IMG/VR virus record: IMGVR_UViG_2693429728_000004
Span: 1 to 6,037 of that record
Reading direction: 5' to 3' (one strand)
DNA length: 6,037 nt
DNA from: a virus
Taxonomy: Duplodnaviria > Heunggongvirae > Uroviricota > Caudoviricetes
The position numbers were made by a program, and so were the translations under genes. The first letter of the stretch is position 1; every line of letters begins with the position of its first letter. Below the pieces are notes generated by a model. It was not told where the DNA came from. It ran no database searches and saw only the letters and a program-made list of their open reading frames with translations. Positions 235 through 6,037 of the stretch are shown piece by piece.

Positions 235-832
235 TCTGCTGCCACCGGGTTCAACACCACTGGAGCGCCGACTGGCGCAAACCTGCAGCGGGATTTCTGA
301 TCTGCAGGTGCCGCTTCGTGACTTGTGGAATCCGGCAATCTGTCCGGTCAGTTTCCTGCCTTATCTCGCCTGGGCGTTCTCTGTGGATCGCTGGGACGAG
401 GGCTGGACAGAAAGCGTCAAGCGCCAGGTGGTGAAGGATGCTTTTTATATTCATCAGCATAAAGGGACCACCAGTGCCGTGCGGCGGGTGGTGGAGCCGT
501 TCGGCTTTCTGATCCGCATTATTGAGTGGTGGCAGACCGGAGAGGCACCGGGCACGTTTCGCCTGGATATCGGCGTGCAGGACCAGGGCATCACTGAAGA
601 TACCTATCTGGAACTTGAGCGACTGATAAGCGATGCCAAACCATGTAGCCGCCACATGATCGGCATCTCCATCAATCTGCAGACCAGCGGCCCGCATTGG
701 GTGGGAGCTGCCAGCTATCTTGGCGAAGAAATCACGATTTATCCGTATATCAACGAAACAATTATTTCTGGCGGCACCGCGCATGAAGGCGGGGCGGTCC
801 ATGTTATTGACACAATGAGAGTGAATCCATGA
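227..832 (+). CDS. Phage tail protein I (P2 gpI-like)
   Basis: 201-aa ORF containing LWNP..C.....LP.LAWAFSVDRWDE and GTFRLDIGV motifs that I recall from P2 gpI. Its stop overlaps the next start (ATGA at 829-832). Correct position between J-like and H-like genes. Confidence 0.8.
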   Translation: MNSLLPPGSTPLERRLAQTCSGISDLQVPLRDLWNPAICPVSFLPYLAWAFSVDRWDEGWTESVKRQVVKDAFYIHQHKGTTSAVRRVVEPFGFLIRIIEWWQTGEAPGTFRLDIGVQDQGITEDTYLELERLISDAKPCSRHMIGISINLQTSGPHWVGAASYLGEEITIYPYINETIISGGTAHEGGAVHVIDTMRVNP

Positions 833-1974
833 GCACAAAATTTTATACCCTGCTGACGGATATTGGCGCGGCGAAACTTGCCAGCGCCGCCGCGCTCGGT
901 GTGCCGCTAAAAATTACCCATATGGCGGTGGGCGATGGCGGCGGAGTATTGCCAACGCCGGACGCAAAGCAGACGGCACTGGTAAATGAGAAACGCCGGG
1001 CTGCGCTGAATATGCTTTATATCGACCCGCAGAATAGCAGCCAGATTATTGCTGAACAGGTGATCCCTGAAAACGAGGGCGGTTGGTGGATACGTGAAGT
1101 GGGCCTGTTTGATGAGTCCGGGGCATTGATTGCCGTGGGAAACTGCCCGGAAAGCTATAAGCCGCAACTGGCTGAAGGCAGCGGGCGTACCCAGACCGTG
1201 CGCATGGTGCTGATTACCAGCAGCACGGACAATATCACCCTGAAAATCGACCCTGCTGTAGTGCTGGCAACCCGCAAGTATGTGGATGACAAGGCACTGG
1301 AGCTGAAGGTGTACGTGGATGACCTGATGGCAAAACATCTTGCCGCGCCGGACCCGCATTCACAGTATGCACCCAAAGAAAGTCCAACGTTTACCGGAAT
1401 CCCCAAAGCGCCAACGCCAGCGGCGGGGAATAATACCACGCAGCTTGCGACCACCGCATTTGTTCAGGCGGCACTGACGGCTCTTATTAATGGTGCGCCA
1501 GCCACGCTGGACACGCTGAAAGAAATAGCCGCAGCCATTAACAATGATCCGAAATTCAGTACCACCATTAACAATGCGCTGGCACTGAAAGCGCCGCTGT
1601 CGAGTCCGGCACTCACCGGAACGCCAACAGCTCCCACAGCGGCGCAGTCGGTCAACAATACACAGATTGCCACTACCGCTTTTGTGAAATCGGCAATTGC
1701 AGCAATGGTGGGTTCTGCACCTGCGGCACTGGATACACTGAACGAACTGGCAGCGGCGCTGGGGAATGATCCGAACTTTGCCACGACAATGCTGAATGCG
1801 CTGGCAGGTAAACAACCGCTGGACAATACGCTTACCAATTTGAGTGGAAAGGATGTAGCTGGTCTTCTCACATACCTTGGTTTGGGAGAAGACATACCCA
1901 CGATGGCGGTGCTCACCGTGGTAATGGATCGGGTGCCTTCGTTGACTTCAACAACGCGCACCCCGTGGTGGTAA
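829..1974 (+). CDS. Tail fibre protein, N-terminal constant region (P2 gpH-like Sc); in this orientation it is not joined to a receptor-binding cassette and ends after 27 codons of flanking sequence beyond crossover site 1
   Basis: N-terminus [18 protein letters not shown]...MAVGDGGG and the later [26 protein letters not shown] block match what I recall of P2 gpH. The ORF is 381 aa whereas P2 gpH is about 670 aa. The motif YLGLGE is encoded exactly across site 1. Confidence 0.85.
1865..1890 (+). other. Crossover site 1 for a serine invertase (gix/hix-like 26-bp imperfect palindrome), inside the Sc coding sequence
   Basis: TTCTCACATACC-TT-GGTTTGGGAGAA: 12-bp half-sites (10 of 12 symmetric) around a central TT. 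The right half GGTTTGGGAGAA(G) is identical at sites 2, 3 and 4. Resembles the gix/hix architecture as I recall it (AAACC-NN-GGTTT core). Confidence 0.7.
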
Positions 1975-2127: not shown

Positions 2128-2694
2128 TCAGGGGGATTCATTGCTCTCATTCACCGGAAATTTTCTATAAATAGTAGAAACGCCTACATCAAAAATCAGT
2201 GCAATACGCTGTCTTGATTCTCCGGCCTCGAGTAAACGTCCAATCTGTGCCCACTGTTCGGTGGTCAACTTAGGACGGCGTCCACCTACTCTGCCTTTGG
2301 CACGAGCTGCAGCCAGCCCTGCCCTGGTACGTTCAACTATCAGTTCGCGTTCCATTTCAGCCAGGGCACCCATGACATGAAAAAAGAAACGGCCCATTGG
2401 GGTGCTGGTATCAATACTGTCAGTCAGGCTTCGGAAATTCACGCCTCGCTGACGCAACTCTTCTATCAGCGTAACAAGATGCCGCATACTGCGCCCCAAC
2501 CTGTCCAGCTTCCAGACAACCAGCGTATCTCCTGCCGATAGTGTCCTGAGCAGTTTTTTCAGCCCTGGTCTGTCGGACTTAGTGCCACTGATTTTATCCT
2601 CAAAAATCCGCTCACATCCCGCGCAGTTCAGTGCATTACGTTGCAAATCGGTGTTCTGGTCATTTGTTGATACGCGTACATAGCCAATAAGCAT
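2128..2694 (-). CDS. Serine DNA invertase, Gin/Pin/Cin/Hin family, copy 1 (apparently native C-terminus)
   Basis: N-terminus MLIGYVRVSTNDQNTDLQ with the catalytic Ser in the YVRVS motif, plus VVWKLDRLGRS and a C-terminal helix-turn-helix region (RIALIFDVGVSTIYR). Very close to E. coli e14 Pin as I recall it. Start placed at the second ATG (2692-2694) because GGGGG lies 6 nt upstream; the six-frame ORF extends to 2700. Confidence 0.93.
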   Translation of the reverse strand: MLIGYVRVSTNDQNTDLQRNALNCAGCERIFEDKISGTKSDRPGLKKLLRTLSAGDTLVVWKLDRLGRSMRHLVTLIEELRQRGVNFRSLTDSIDTSTPMGRFFFHVMGALAEMERELIVERTRAGLAAARAKGRVGGRRPKLTTEQWAQIGRLLEAGESRQRIALIFDVGVSTIYRKFPVNESNESP

Positions 2695-2776
2695 GATCAT
2701 CCCCCTGAATAAAAACCGGAGATGATGCCAGTTAGCCGTTATCTCTGCATTTTCTTAAACGTTGGTTTGGGAGAAG
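2162..2776. repeat. 615-bp direct repeat, copy A (invertase body + promoter region + crossover site)
   Basis: Both boundaries mapped by direct comparison: identity with copy B begins at 2162/3545 and ends at 2776/4159 (constant offset 1383). The encoded invertase residues are identical in both copies. Confidence 0.85.
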
Positions 2777-3243
2777 GTTCAGCATTACCTGTTGGTGCGC
2801 CTGTTCCGTGGCCTTCAGAGACACCTCCAACAGGCTGGCTGAAATGCAACGGGGCGGCTTTTTCTGCTGAAGAATACCCGGAACTGGCAAAGGCTTACCC
2901 GACAAATAAATTGCCTGATTTACGAGGTGAATTTATTCGTGGCTGGGATGATGGGCGCGGTATTGATGCAGGACGTGCTTTATTGAGCCTTCAGGCTGGG
3001 ATGCTGGAAAAGCACCGTCATATTGTTGTTGCCAATGATGGTTACGACACAAAAGATGAATGGGAACTGGCTACGATTTTCAAAAAGACATACACACAAG
3101 GACGGGGACTTGATGCCACAAATACAGGAGGGAGTCTGATCCCATCACCGACACTTCATTCACGAGGGAGTATCGGTAATACTGGCGGGAGTGAAACCCG
3201 TCCACGAAATATTGCATTTAACTTTATCGTGAGGGCTGCATAA
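2722..3243 (+). CDS. Tail fibre variable C-terminal (receptor-binding) cassette Sv1; functional only when fused to Sc at the crossover site
   Basis: Contains GAPVPWPS...P.GWLKCNGAAFSAEEYPELAKAYP...NIAFNFIVRAA, which I recognise as the signature of Mu S / P1 S / e14-type fibre tips. The leading ATG codons are probably fortuitous; coding relevance begins at the GLGE codons in site 2. Confidence 0.8.
   Translation: MMPVSRYLCIFLNVGLGEGSALPVGAPVPWPSETPPTGWLKCNGAAFSAEEYPELAKAYPTNKLPDLRGEFIRGWDDGRGIDAGRALLSLQAGMLEKHRHIVVANDGYDTKDEWELATIFKKTYTQGRGLDATNTGGSLIPSPTLHSRGSIGNTGGSETRPRNIAFNFIVRAA
2750..2775 (+). other. Crossover site 2 (gix/hix-like), about 50 bp upstream of the invertase copy 1 start and at the 5' edge of cassette Sv1
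   Basis: TTTTCTTAAACG-TT-GGTTTGGGAGAA. Right half and central TT are identical to site 1. Same codon phase as site 1 (the central TT occupies codon positions 2-3 and is followed by GLGE codons). Confidence 0.7.
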
Positions 3244-3544
3244 TGGATAACGCCGTATTAAATAGCGAGCTTATTGCCACGAAGGCGGGGAATATTACCG
3301 TCTATAACTATGATGGTGAAACTCGGGAATATATTTCCACTTCAAATGAATATCTTGCCATTGGTGTCGGTATCCCTGCATATTCCTGTTTAGATGCCCC
3401 TGGCACACATAAGGCGGGTTATGCTATCTGCCGTTCGATGGATTTAAATTCATGGGAATATGTGCCAGATCATCGCGGTGAAATCGTCTATAGCACCGAA
3501 ACAGGAGAATCGAAAGAAATCACAGCTCCGGGTGATTATCCTGA
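2762..3544. repeat. Inverted repeat, arm A (site core + Sv1 + first 100 codons of the chaperone), at least 783 bp
   Basis: Position p pairs with 8799-p on the opposite strand: 2762 pairs with 6037 (window end) and 3544 with 5255. The first mismatch is 3545 vs 5254. Confidence 0.85.
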
Positions 3545-3557
3545 TTTCTATAAATAG
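3243..3557 (+). CDS. Tail fibre assembly (chaperone) protein, truncated copy U1; identical to U' for its first 100 codons, then fused to unrelated sequence
   Basis: Residues 1-100 are identical to the 200-aa U' (4954-5556, - strand). Divergence begins at nt 3545, exactly where the 615-bp invertase repeat starts. Start overlaps the Sv1 stop (TAATG). Confidence 0.7.
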   Translation: MDNAVLNSELIATKAGNITVYNYDGETREYISTSNEYLAIGVGIPAYSCLDAPGTHKAGYAICRSMDLNSWEYVPDHRGEIVYSTETGESKEITAPGDYPDFYK

Positions 3558-4077
3558 TAGAAACGCCTACATCAAAAATCAGTGCAATACGCTGTCTTGA
3601 TTCTCCGGCCTCGAGTAAACGTCCAATCTGTGCCCACTGTTCGGTGGTCAACTTAGGACGGCGTCCACCTACTCTGCCTTTGGCACGAGCTGCAGCCAGC
3701 CCTGCCCTGGTACGTTCAACTATCAGTTCGCGTTCCATTTCAGCCAGGGCACCCATGACATGAAAAAAGAAACGGCCCATTGGGGTGCTGGTATCAATAC
3801 TGTCAGTCAGGCTTCGGAAATTCACGCCTCGCTGACGCAACTCTTCTATCAGCGTAACAAGATGCCGCATACTGCGCCCCAACCTGTCCAGCTTCCAGAC
3901 AACCAGCGTATCTCCTGCCGATAGTGTCCTGAGCAGTTTTTTCAGCCCTGGTCTGTCGGACTTAGTGCCACTGATTTTATCCTCAAAAATCCGCTCACAT
4001 CCCGCGCAGTTCAGTGCATTACGTTGCAAATCGGTGTTCTGGTCATTTGTTGATACGCGTACATAGCCAATAAGCAT
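3520..4077 (-). CDS. Serine DNA invertase, Gin/Pin/Cin/Hin family, copy 2 (C-terminal tail replaced: ...STIYRNQDNHPEL in place of ...STIYRKFPVNESNESP)
   Basis: Identical to copy 1 through the helix-turn-helix region. Its last 8 codons are read from the antisense strand of the truncated U1. Lies within direct repeat 3545-4159. Confidence 0.9.
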   Translation of the reverse strand: MLIGYVRVSTNDQNTDLQRNALNCAGCERIFEDKISGTKSDRPGLKKLLRTLSAGDTLVVWKLDRLGRSMRHLVTLIEELRQRGVNFRSLTDSIDTSTPMGRFFFHVMGALAEMERELIVERTRAGLAAARAKGRVGGRRPKLTTEQWAQIGRLLEAGESRQRIALIFDVGVSTIYRNQDNHPEL

Positions 4078-4159
4078 GATCATCCCCCTGAATAAAAACC
4101 GGAGATGATGCCAGTTAGCCGTTATCTCTGCATTTTCTTAAACGTTGGTTTGGGAGAAG
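3545..4159. repeat. 615-bp direct repeat, copy B
   Basis: See copy A. Mismatches flank the repeat at 2161 vs 3544 and at 2777 vs 4160. Confidence 0.85.
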
Positions 4160-4518
4160 CAGCGAAACGGGGTGTGGGAACAGGGGAAAATCAGATACCG
4201 GACATGGCTTCTTTTGCCAGTGGTGATGGATGGATGAAATTACCCAACGGTAAAATTCTGCAATATGGTCGAGGTGAGGCTATGCCGAAATTATCGACGC
4301 AAACAATGAGGATTACATTTCCTATCCCTTTCCCTAAAAAAGCGGACTGCGCCATTCTTACCCATTCTGGTGATGGCGGTGCGCCTTTAGGCGCTGGGCG
4401 AGGGTTCGTGATGACTGCAGAAGGCCCTACGTTAACCGGCTTTAATTCTGCTTACAGAACGTCATCAACCAGCGACACGGTATCTATGCATTACAGTTGG
4501 TGGGCTGTTGGTGAGTAA
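4105..4518 (+). CDS. Tail fibre variable C-terminal cassette Sv2, a receptor-binding tip unrelated in sequence to Sv1/Sv'
   Basis: Shares only the leader and GLGE site codons with Sv1, then diverges completely (AAKRGVGTGENQIPDMASF...). Followed 20 bp downstream by a chaperone gene, as expected for a fibre tip cassette. Confidence 0.7.
   Translation: MMPVSRYLCIFLNVGLGEAAKRGVGTGENQIPDMASFASGDGWMKLPNGKILQYGRGEAMPKLSTQTMRITFPIPFPKKADCAILTHSGDGGAPLGAGRGFVMTAEGPTLTGFNSAYRTSSTSDTVSMHYSWWAVGE
4133..4158 (+). other. Crossover site 3 (gix/hix-like), identical copy of site 2, at the 5' edge of cassette Sv2
   Basis: Same 26 bp as site 2 (offset 1383 bp, inside the direct repeat). Sequence diverges immediately after GAGAAG. 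Confidence 0.7.
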
Positions 4519-4538
4519 TTTTATTCAGGGTGATTTAT

Positions 4539-4982
4539 ATGAACGAATATGTTTATAGTGCCAAGCATAATGCTTTTTTCCCTGTGGATATGATTGATAA
4601 ATATAAATCAGTAGGATGGGATTTATCAGATGCTAAGGAGGTGAATCAAAATATTGTCAGTGAGTTTATGGCTGAACCGCCACAAGGAAAAGTCCGTATT
4701 GCCGGAGAGGATGGACTACCTACGTGGGCAGATATTCCTCCACCTACTCATGAAGAGCTTATTGAAATTACTGAATCAGAAAGACAGCTACTAATTAACC
4801 AGGCCAACGAATACATGAACAGTAAGCAATGGCCCGGTAAAGCCGCTATTGGTCGTCTGAAAGGTGATGAACTGGCGCAATATAATTTGTGGCTGGATTA
4901 TCTGGACGCACTGGAGCTGATCGATACTTCCGGTGCGCCAGATATTGAATGGCCTACGCCTCCGGCAGTTCAGGCCAGATGA
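4539..4982 (+). CDS. Tail fibre assembly (chaperone) protein U2, cognate to Sv2
   Basis: Position immediately after Sv2. Its C-terminal region (LLINQANEYMNSKQW....A..RLKGDELAQYNLWLDYLDALELIDTSGAPDIEWP) parallels the U' C-terminus (LIDTAMASISLIQLKLQAGRKLTQAETTRLNAVLDYIDAVTATDTSTAPDVIWP). Start chosen at the ATG at 4539 with AGGGTGA upstream; the ORF track begins at a GTG at 4530. Confidence 0.75.
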   Translation: MNEYVYSAKHNAFFPVDMIDKYKSVGWDLSDAKEVNQNIVSEFMAEPPQGKVRIAGEDGLPTWADIPPPTHEELIEITESERQLLINQANEYMNSKQWPGKAAIGRLKGDELAQYNLWLDYLDALELIDTSGAPDIEWPTPPAVQAR

Positions 4983-5556
4983 CATCCGGCGCTGTGCTGG
5001 TATCTGTTGCCGTCACCGCGTCAATGTAATCCAGCACAGCGTTAAGGCGGGTTGTTTCTGCCTGCGTCAGCTTCCGTCCGGCCTGTAATTTCAGTTGAAT
5101 CAGACTGATGGAGGCCATTGCAGTATCAATCAGCGACTGGCGCAGTGCTTCTGCTGCATCTACTGCTGCGCCGTGCTGTGCCTCGGTATCTGTCACCCAT
5201 TTCTCACCATTCCATTTATCGTATGGCGTTAACGGGGCGATAGTGGTTGTATTTTCAGGATAATCACCCGGAGCTGTGATTTCTTTCGATTCTCCTGTTT
5301 CGGTGCTATAGACGATTTCACCGCGATGATCTGGCACATATTCCCATGAATTTAAATCCATCGAACGGCAGATAGCATAACCCGCCTTATGTGTGCCAGG
5401 GGCATCTAAACAGGAATATGCAGGGATACCGACACCAATGGCAAGATATTCATTTGAAGTGGAAATATATTCCCGAGTTTCACCATCATAGTTATAGACG
5501 GTAATATTCCCCGCCTTCGTGGCAATAAGCTCGCTATTTAATACGGCGTTATCCAT
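4954..5556 (-). CDS. Tail fibre assembly (chaperone) protein U', full length, cognate to Sv'
   Basis: 200-aa ORF convergent with U2, with 3' ends overlapping by 29 bp. Start overlaps the stop of Sv' on the - strand. This paired, convergent layout is the one I know from the Mu G and P1 C invertible segments. Confidence 0.8.
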   Translation of the reverse strand: MDNAVLNSELIATKAGNITVYNYDGETREYISTSNEYLAIGVGIPAYSCLDAPGTHKAGYAICRSMDLNSWEYVPDHRGEIVYSTETGESKEITAPGDYPENTTTIAPLTPYDKWNGEKWVTDTEAQHGAAVDAAEALRQSLIDTAMASISLIQLKLQAGRKLTQAETTRLNAVLDYIDAVTATDTSTAPDVIWPELPEA

Positions 5557-6037
5557 TATGCAGCCCTCACGATAAAGTTAAATGCAATATTTCGTGGACG
5601 GGTTTCACTCCCGCCAGTATTACCGATACTCCCTCGTGAATGAAGTGTCGGTGATGGGATCAGACTCCCTCCTGTATTTGTGGCATCAAGTCCCCGTCCT
5701 TGTGTGTATGTCTTTTTGAAAATCGTAGCCAGTTCCCATTCATCTTTTGTGTCGTAACCATCATTGGCAACAACAATATGACGGTGCTTTTCCAGCATCC
5801 CAGCCTGAAGGCTCAATAAAGCACGTCCTGCATCAATACCGCGCCCATCATCCCAGCCACGAATAAATTCACCTCGTAAATCAGGCAATTTATTTGTCGG
5901 GTAAGCCTTTGCCAGTTCCGGGTATTCTTCAGCAGAAAAAGCCGCCCCGTTGCATTTCAGCCAGCCTGTTGGAGGTGTCTCTGAAGGCCACGGAACAGGC
6001 GCACCAACAGGTAATGCTGAACCTTCTCCCAAACCAA
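5556..6037 (-). CDS. Tail fibre variable C-terminal cassette Sv' (same protein as Sv1), in inverted orientation; 5' end and site run past the window end
   Basis: Translation is identical to Sv1 from the GLGE codons through NIAFNFIVRAA. The two 60-nt stretches 3181-3240 and 5559-5618 were checked and are exact reverse complements. Confidence 0.8.
   Translation of the reverse strand, partial: GLGEGSALPVGAPVPWPSETPPTGWLKCNGAAFSAEEYPELAKAYPTNKLPDLRGEFIRGWDDGRGIDAGRALLSLQAGMLEKHRHIVVANDGYDTKDEWELATIFKKTYTQGRGLDATNTGGSLIPSPTLHSRGSIGNTGGSETRPRNIAFNFIVRAA
6024..6037 (-). other. Crossover site 4 (gix/hix-like), inverted relative to sites 1-3, truncated by the window end
   Basis: Reverse complement of 6021-6037 is TTGGTTTGGGAGAAGGT, i.e. 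central TT plus the conserved right half. The other half-site lies beyond position 6037. Confidence 0.6.

Follow-up and report, generated by a model that had tools for sequence, protein, structure and literature searches.

In the G segment of phage Mu (S/U versus S'/U', with the invertase Gin) and the C segment of phage P1 (Cin), a constant fibre shaft is served by two opposed sets of tip and chaperone genes with an adjoining serine invertase, and the segment acts as a host-range switch. Inversion of such segments has been shown experimentally in e14, in Mu and in P2-like prophages of enteropathogenic Escherichia coli (Goldberg et al., PMC4272514). Here we describe a locus of this kind in a 6,037-nucleotide stretch of viral DNA (the window), which corresponds to the whole of record CYFF01000056.1 (6037 bp) from the draft E. 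coli assembly GCA_001285365.1. It carries P2-type tail genes (the C-terminus of J, I and fibre gene H, represented by its constant part Sc), two copies of a serine invertase, two Collar-domain tips (Sv1 and Sv'), one gp53-like tip (Sv2) and chaperones of the Caudo_TAP family. Positions 4159-4982 encode Sv2 and its chaperone U2. In our reading, to which we give a probability of roughly 0.85, the locus is a single invertible tail-fibre segment of the Pin/Gin/Cin type, ~1.9 kb long and carried by a P2-like E. coli prophage, and this region is its second arm. That Sv2 and U2 constitute an alternative receptor-binding tip and its matched chaperone is well supported. The switch logic is that of the Mu and P1 segments, but their tip families differ from Sv2.

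The cassette is an allelic form of the P segment of e14 in K-12 (stfP-tfaP / tfaE-stfE, pinE), with which it shares gene order and orientation, the published crossover repeat (TTGGTTTGGGAGAAGG) and the 29-nt convergent overlap that joins tfaP to tfaE in K-12 and U2 to U' here. Identity is 85% between the invertase and PinE, 91% between U' and TfaE and 58% between Sv1 and the StfE tip. StfP and TfaP are the positional counterparts of Sv2 and U2, and e14 StfP is likewise a gp53-like tip; however, Sv2 is a different allele (27% identity), and U2 matches TfaP at 54% over the aligned C-terminal 112 residues, with a conserved C-domain and unrelated N-domains. The two cassettes also differ in their setting, as that of e14 is attached to the short e14 shaft and this one to a fibre shaft of P2 type (PF12571) within a P2-like prophage. 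Classical P2 is not known to have an invertible segment and possesses a single tip and chaperone (H/G). The shaft and the flanking J, I and sheath genes here are of P2 type, with the tip region replaced by the e14-type switch cassette.

The constant N-terminal part of gene H, Sc (829-1890, plus strand; PF12571 Phage_tail_fib, E = 3e-65), ends in a 26-bp crossover site at 1865-1890 (TTCTCACATACC TT GGTTTGGGAGAA) that encodes ...LTYLGLGE and belongs to repeat family D2. Another 26-bp site, at 4133-4158 (TTTTCTTAAACG TT GGTTTGGGAGAA), lies inside the invertase-proximal leader (MMPVSRYLCIFLNV GLGE; 4105-4158, plus strand), which is homologous to the e14 stfE leader MPFACYFFIFINVGLGE. The 15-mer TTGGTTTGGGAGAAG occurs four times in the window, including 1877-1891, 4145-4159 (plus strand) and 6023-6037 (minus strand). 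The last of these is half of the Sc-proximal crossover site, the contig stopping exactly where site identity ends; beyond the equivalent point in E. coli ST130, the closest complete genome, Sc follows directly. ST130 has the order H(Sc::Sv1)-U1 / U2-Sv2 (opposed) - site - invertase - sheath, and is colinear with window positions 3545-6037 at 98.9% identity with Sc joined to Sv'; it has two sites and no more, inverted and separated by 1.89 kb. In the mechanism we propose, the serine invertase would flip the segment between the Sc site and the inverted copy adjoining the invertase gene. One orientation would place Sc in frame at ...GLGE with the Collar-type tip Sv1 and the chaperone U1/U' downstream, and the other would fuse Sc to Sv2 with U2 downstream. 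Because the receptor of Sv2 presumably differs from that of Sv1, the phage progeny of the two orientations would differ in host range. Both the invertase-site-Sv1 and the invertase-site-Sv2 junctions were assembled from one isolate, and public loci hold silent as well as Sc-fused copies of Sv2. The public Sc::Sv2 fusions are in frame at LGLGE|AAKR, on a shaft identical to this Sc at 346 of 354 positions, and they bear out the proposal of a first-pass annotation of this DNA that Sv2 and U2 are a receptor-binding tip and cognate chaperone, alternative to Sv1/U1 and expressed through inversion. That annotation went too far in naming the pair as the payload of the switch, as it is one of two equivalent payloads.

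The idea of a single segment must be reconciled with a window that, as scaffolded, appears to hold two invertases and four sites. The window differs from CYFF01000056.1 at only two positions, 1892 and 3544, each an N in the record and an A in the window, and it is three contigs joined through single-N gaps. To the right of 1892, a separate contig opens with the reverse complement of sheath codons 1-31 followed by the invertase, such that the join couples Sc-site with the antisense of sheath codons 31-1. The join at 3544 parts a contig with invertase-site-Sv1-U1(5') from one with invertase-site-Sv2-U2-U'-Sv' and couples U1 codon 100 with invertase codon ~178. Both junctions lie outside the site centre, and at neither do the joined pieces share bases or a dinucleotide. 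The junction at 1892 has no counterpart in E. coli ST130, searches of viral, genome and metagenome contigs did not recover the junction strings, and the junction proteins gave no exact look-up match under either start choice. A direct repeat of 615 nt (2162-2777 = 3545-4160) and an inverted repeat of 783 nt (2762-3544 / 5255-6037), each 100% identical, are the same DNA assembled in both orientations, indicating that the sequenced culture mixed both states, while the Ns at 1892 and 3544 show that the extra invertase and sites arise from the scaffolding of what is a single canonical segment. These joins account for the duplicate invertase, the truncation of U1, the change at the C-terminus of the invertase and the fusion of Sc to antisense sheath sequence, as well as for the count of three tips (Sv1, Sv2 and Sv') in the first-pass annotation.

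Two candidate interpretations that take the scaffolded layout at face value were rejected. A real duplication of the invertase and a real Sc/sheath junction, arising by tandem duplication plus inversion or by pseudo-site recombination, are ruled out by the off-centre junctions, the absence of the junction strings and proteins, and the N in the record. A multi-site shufflon of the p15B Min or R64 type is ruled out by the location of the extra sites and invertase on N-joined pieces and by the presence of two sites only in ST130. The multi-site, two-invertase layout is an artefact, and other findings built on that arrangement need re-reading.

Sv2 (4159-4518, plus strand) is a 119-residue alternative fibre tip in which a linker, AAKRGVGTGENQIPDM (4159-4206), precedes a Gp53-like_C beta-sandwich domain. 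The match to PF21882 scores 51.2 bits (cut-off 24.9; E = 1.8e-13) over residues 45-136 and profile positions 1-83 of 84. Among 354 representative clusters a Gp53-like_C match is nearly always C-terminal, and the domain ends Sc::Sv2 fusions of 470-479 residues as well as fusions of ~221 residues. PHROG tail-fibre families match Sv2, while families of tail-fibre assembly (Tfa) proteins match U2. A sequence search of the PDB with Sv2 gave only a weak match, to the short tail fibre gp92 (E = 0.036), and NCBIfam has no model for Sv2, U2, U' or Sv1. In its predicted fold (beta-sandwich/jellyroll), Sv2 most resembles AP22 gp53 and the receptor-binding foot of R-type pyocin fibres: the best structural matches of the model are the pyocin fibre and chaperone PA0620/PA0621 (6CL5, 6CL6, 6CXB, 6CU2) and AP22 gp53 (4MTM), which belong to the same Pfam family, at 20-30% identity over ~80 residues and with model confidence too low to compare receptor-contact loops. 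In the R-type pyocin the foot is the C-terminus of a P2-type fibre and the chaperone gene, required for soluble fibre, lies directly downstream, but that locus is not invertible, unlike the cassette described here. By analogy with work on R pyocins (PMC6363177), Sv2 would form a trimeric foot that binds a surface saccharide, most likely lipopolysaccharide (LPS), other than the receptor of Sv1. A search within the Sv2 allele group for variability hot-spots that might mark receptor loops was uninformative (entropy 0.19 in loops versus 0.16 in strands).

The separation of the two tips drawn in the first-pass annotation is sound, as are its coordinates for the tip (4159-4518) and for U2 (4539-4982). 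The open reading frames (ORFs) at 4105-4518 and 2722-3243 share an 18-residue leader, MMPVSRYLCIFLNVGLGE, beyond which BLASTP finds nothing; the PVPWPS and NIAFNFIVRAA motifs are absent from the Sv2 translation; and Pfam assigns Sv2 to Gp53-like_C but Sv1 to Collar. Across 59 loci, variable columns fall at codon positions 3, 1 and 2 in numbers of 70, 38 and 23 for Sv2 and 62, 35 and 23 for U2, with no stops in either, and both genes are under coding constraint. We also observed that the 16-residue linker after the site is conserved among gp53-like tips that are otherwise 36-42% identical, and it may serve as an adaptor between any shaft and this class of tip.

U2 (4539-4982, plus strand) is a Caudo_TAP tail-fibre assembly protein that matches PF02413 with E = 2.6e-29 (102.4 bits, cut-off 22.1; profile positions 2-130 of 131) and phrog_188 with E = 6.7e-63. 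Its start is the ATG at 4539, as in homologues, and not the GTG at 4530, which leaves 20 nt (4519-4538) between it and the 3' end of Sv2, an arrangement present at all loci examined. The protein divides into an N-terminal domain of residues 1-50 (4539-4688), which is allele-specific, AT-rich (36% GC) and variable in alignment and is presumed to be the fibre-binding part of the chaperone, and a C-terminal domain of residues 51-147 (4689-4982), the conserved helical assembly domain common to Tfa proteins including U'. The description of U2 as unrelated to the other arm consequently fails for its C-terminal region, which is 34% identical to that of U' over 80 residues (E = 3e-10), both proteins matching PF02413. 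The AlphaFold2 model has an alpha/beta domain at residues 1-65 (predicted local distance difference test score 84-89) and two long helices at 71-127, and as a prediction it agrees with the modular scheme published for Tfa proteins (PMC9608196), where fibre binding falls to a variable N-domain and trimerisation to a conserved C-domain. U2 is a two-module chaperone whose variable N-terminal ~50 residues are matched to Sv2, which they presumably bind physically, and whose helical C-terminal domain is a generic assembly and trimerisation module shared with U'.

The distinct character of the two U2 domains is reflected in how they vary with the tip across 80 viral loci. Where the U2 N-domain is at least 90% identical to that of this locus, the tip is 73-100% identical, and where the N-domain is 36-42% identical, the tip falls to 20-42%, while the U2 C-domain remains 81-90% identical in both classes. 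In the prophage of E. coli AR_0013, the tip is 29% identical and the chaperone 66% overall, with the first ~50 residues divergent, and similarity at the DNA level to other alleles resumes at ~4689-4774. The co-varying unit is the tip together with the chaperone N-domain (~4159-4690), with the C-terminal two thirds of U2 conserved across alleles. At the other boundary, tips are all joined at the site-encoded (L/V)GLGE, followed by the conserved linker AAKR.VGTGENQIPDM, and at least five fibre shafts, this Sc type included, carry the Sv2 tip as an in-frame fusion.

The tip-specific DNA (4159-4700) is present in 551 of 5426 complete E. coli genomes and, at ~93% identity, in pro483, in a P2-like phage record from O157:H43 strain T22 and in the Citrobacter phage Omnitron, among other phage records. 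Many other phages have only the 3' third of U2 in common, and close homologues come overwhelmingly from Escherichia and its relatives. In a Mu/e14-like prophage of ETEC4085, identity is ~100% from 4144 to ~5100 (98-100% per 60-nt window) and 68-97% elsewhere in the cassette, and the endpoints of this ~950-nt tract are the crossover site and the conserved 3' region of U'. The tract is direct evidence that unrelated phage types have recently exchanged this DNA. The tip and chaperone N-domain would move between phage types by recombination through conserved sequence, with the crossover site at one end and either the chaperone C-domain or the U' gene at the other.

Horizontal exchange is therefore supported by mosaic structure and not by base composition, from which the first-pass annotation had argued. 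Its claim that Sv2 is compositionally distinct is contradicted by a GC content of 49.4% against 48.7% for the Sv1 tip (z = 0.2), and GC at third codon positions (GC3) is higher in Sv2 (42.5%) than in Sv1 (34.6%). The claim that U2 is AT-rich holds against Sc, with 43.9% against 55.0% (z = -3.9), but not against U' (49.1% overall, 44.0% in the N-half and 54.1% in the C-half; z = -1.66, not significant), the N-half of which equals U2 overall. A sliding-window analysis does reveal a trough at the start of U2, the deepest in the window (~4480-4700), where 150-nt windows starting at 4481-4551 have 32-36% GC (window mean 50.2%, standard deviation 5.9). The AT-rich run is thus genuine but is limited to U2 codons 1-50 (36.0% GC, GC3 0.30, compared with 48.0% GC for the remainder), and the step in composition separates the phage backbone (55.8%) from the invertible cassette as a whole (47.3%) rather than one cassette arm from the other. 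Moreover, GC at second codon positions in these 50 codons is 0.28, indicating that amino-acid content is part of the cause, and non-orthologous chaperone N-domains are equally AT-rich (34% GC in AR_0013, 40% in K-12 tfaP), such that low GC is a property of the domain class and of the cassette as a whole.

These observations bear directly on whether the low GC of Sv2/U2 could instead record a recent import from a low-GC donor outside the Enterobacteriaceae. The depth of the trough at U2 codons 1-50, the lowest GC in the window, and the significant deficit of U2 relative to Sc are what such an import would leave, but the equal GC of Sv2 and Sv1 and of U2 and the U' N-half, the equally AT-rich N-domains of AR_0013 and K-12, the cassette-wide step, the amino-acid effect and the Escherichia-centred distribution of close homologues all oppose it, and we regard it as very unlikely. 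An equally low expectation attaches to the proposal that the module has no current role and that Sv2/U2 is what remains, non-functional and in decay, of a defective prophage. The record is a fragmentary draft, e14 itself is defective, and related prophages suffer lethal rearrangements, as in AR_0013, where an aberrant inversion splits H and the sheath gene. Decay is difficult to square, however, with Sv2 and U2 ORFs that remain intact both here and in every one of the 59 ungapped loci, with substitutions concentrated at third codon positions, or with a module that recurs in about a tenth of complete E. coli genomes, in the phage records pro483 and Omnitron and in in-frame Sc::Sv2 fusions.

A further alternative, unlikely but less so than these two, assigns the module to host defence rather than to host range, with the invertase-proximal ORF at 4105/4108-4518 (leader plus Sv2, 136-137 residues) expressed as a free receptor-masking protein. 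The ORF has the architecture of e14 StfE2, with an stfE-type leader by the invertase and a GLGE fusion to a gp53-like tip, and is its positional analogue; the 136-residue form is also the commonest annotated database form of the Sv2 protein. StfE2 is reported to mask receptors, its production lowering T2 adsorption to 3-12% and protecting against several phages (Kirigo et al. 2025, PMC12529663), although the effect is based on plasmid over-production and docking. Sv2 is just 27% identical to the StfP tip of StfE2, a simple scan found no sigma-70-like promoter upstream of 4105 on the plus strand, and a fibre tip without chaperone or shaft may not fold. Nor is the form of the ORF diagnostic, since a 136-residue silent copy is expected in any such switch, and overlap with the crossover site and with sequence upstream of the invertase would by itself keep the leader conserved. 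The more specific version, in which the leader-Sv2 ORF would be expressed alone in the 3545-6037 orientation, would coat or mask an outer-membrane receptor and would render the lysogen resistant to unrelated phages, rests on the StfE2 analogy and is slightly less probable again. Were it true, allelic gp53-like tips would form a diversifying, inversion-switched repertoire of host defence as well as a host-range device.

Against the inversion-switched second arm that we favour stand several points of its own. Within the window as scaffolded, Sc is fused to neither tip, and CYFF01000056.1 does not reveal the true state of the locus or whether the prophage is intact. U2 has no PDB sequence match at E <= 1, the solved Mu Tfa (5YVQ) included, and a Foldseek search of the PDB with the complete two-domain model of U2 returned no significant hit, to 5YVQ or any other structure. 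We found no experiment on the Sv2 allele.

The intact invertase copy (2128-2694, minus strand; 188 residues from MLIGY) matches PF00239 and PF02796 (HTH_7). The chaperone of the other arm, U' (4954-5556, minus strand; PF02413), is convergent with U2, their 3' ends overlapping at 4954-4982, and adjoins Sv' (5556-6022, minus strand; PF07484), a Collar-domain tip identical to Sv1. When Sv'/Sv1 is compared with its counterparts in AR_0013, ETEC4085 and e14, the centre (5614-5790) is 43-70% identical, against 85-98% at the site-proximal and C-terminal ends. The Collar-type arm is thus mosaic as well, which indicates exchangeable specificity regions in both arms.

Seven 'plasmids' of 1.8-1.9 kb in PLSDB (NZ_CP148551-CP148556 and NZ_CP104636) consist of the invertible segment alone (tip, two chaperones, tip) and are probably circularised assembly artefacts, or possibly excised circles. 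In E. coli AR_0013 (NZ_CP032204.1; locus L001, 4871-4880 and 8466-8470), Sc is joined exactly at the central TT of the crossover site (TTCTCACATACCTT|cgataatg) to a point ~960 nt inside the sheath gene, whose C-terminus lies after Sv' at the opposite end. To judge from the sequence, this looks like a genuine aberrant inversion, in which a pseudo-site within the sheath gene seems to have served the invertase and both H and FI seem to have been inactivated. In ETEC4085 (locus L003, 8721-11531), a 936-residue SIR2-family gene is the immediate neighbour of pinE where the Mu/e14-like prophage with the identical Sv2/U2 ends. This gene at the border of the cassette, where e14 has mcrA, may serve in defence. 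Lastly, a Logan contig of SRR23851422 (locus L085, 6081-7100) derives from a P2-like phage with an identical gpI and harbours, between tail-completion gene S and baseplate gene V, an opposite-strand gene for a 339-residue DUF5677 protein that looks like a moron.

The alternative arm of Pin/Gin/Cin-type host-range switches has long been known, and Sv2/U2 is one of its alleles. The biology is that of textbooks, the pair is present in about a tenth of complete E. coli genomes, and its sequences are already annotated in public genomes as 'gp53-like domain-containing protein' and 'tail fiber assembly protein', so that its identification here has little significance beyond correct annotation. Nonetheless, GC content emerges as a poor guide to tip exchange in this cassette, for which the real evidence is mosaic identity tracts, and the exchangeable unit, comprising the tip and the first ~50 chaperone residues from the crossover site to the C-domain, offers a practical rule for engineering fibres and tailocins with matched chaperones.

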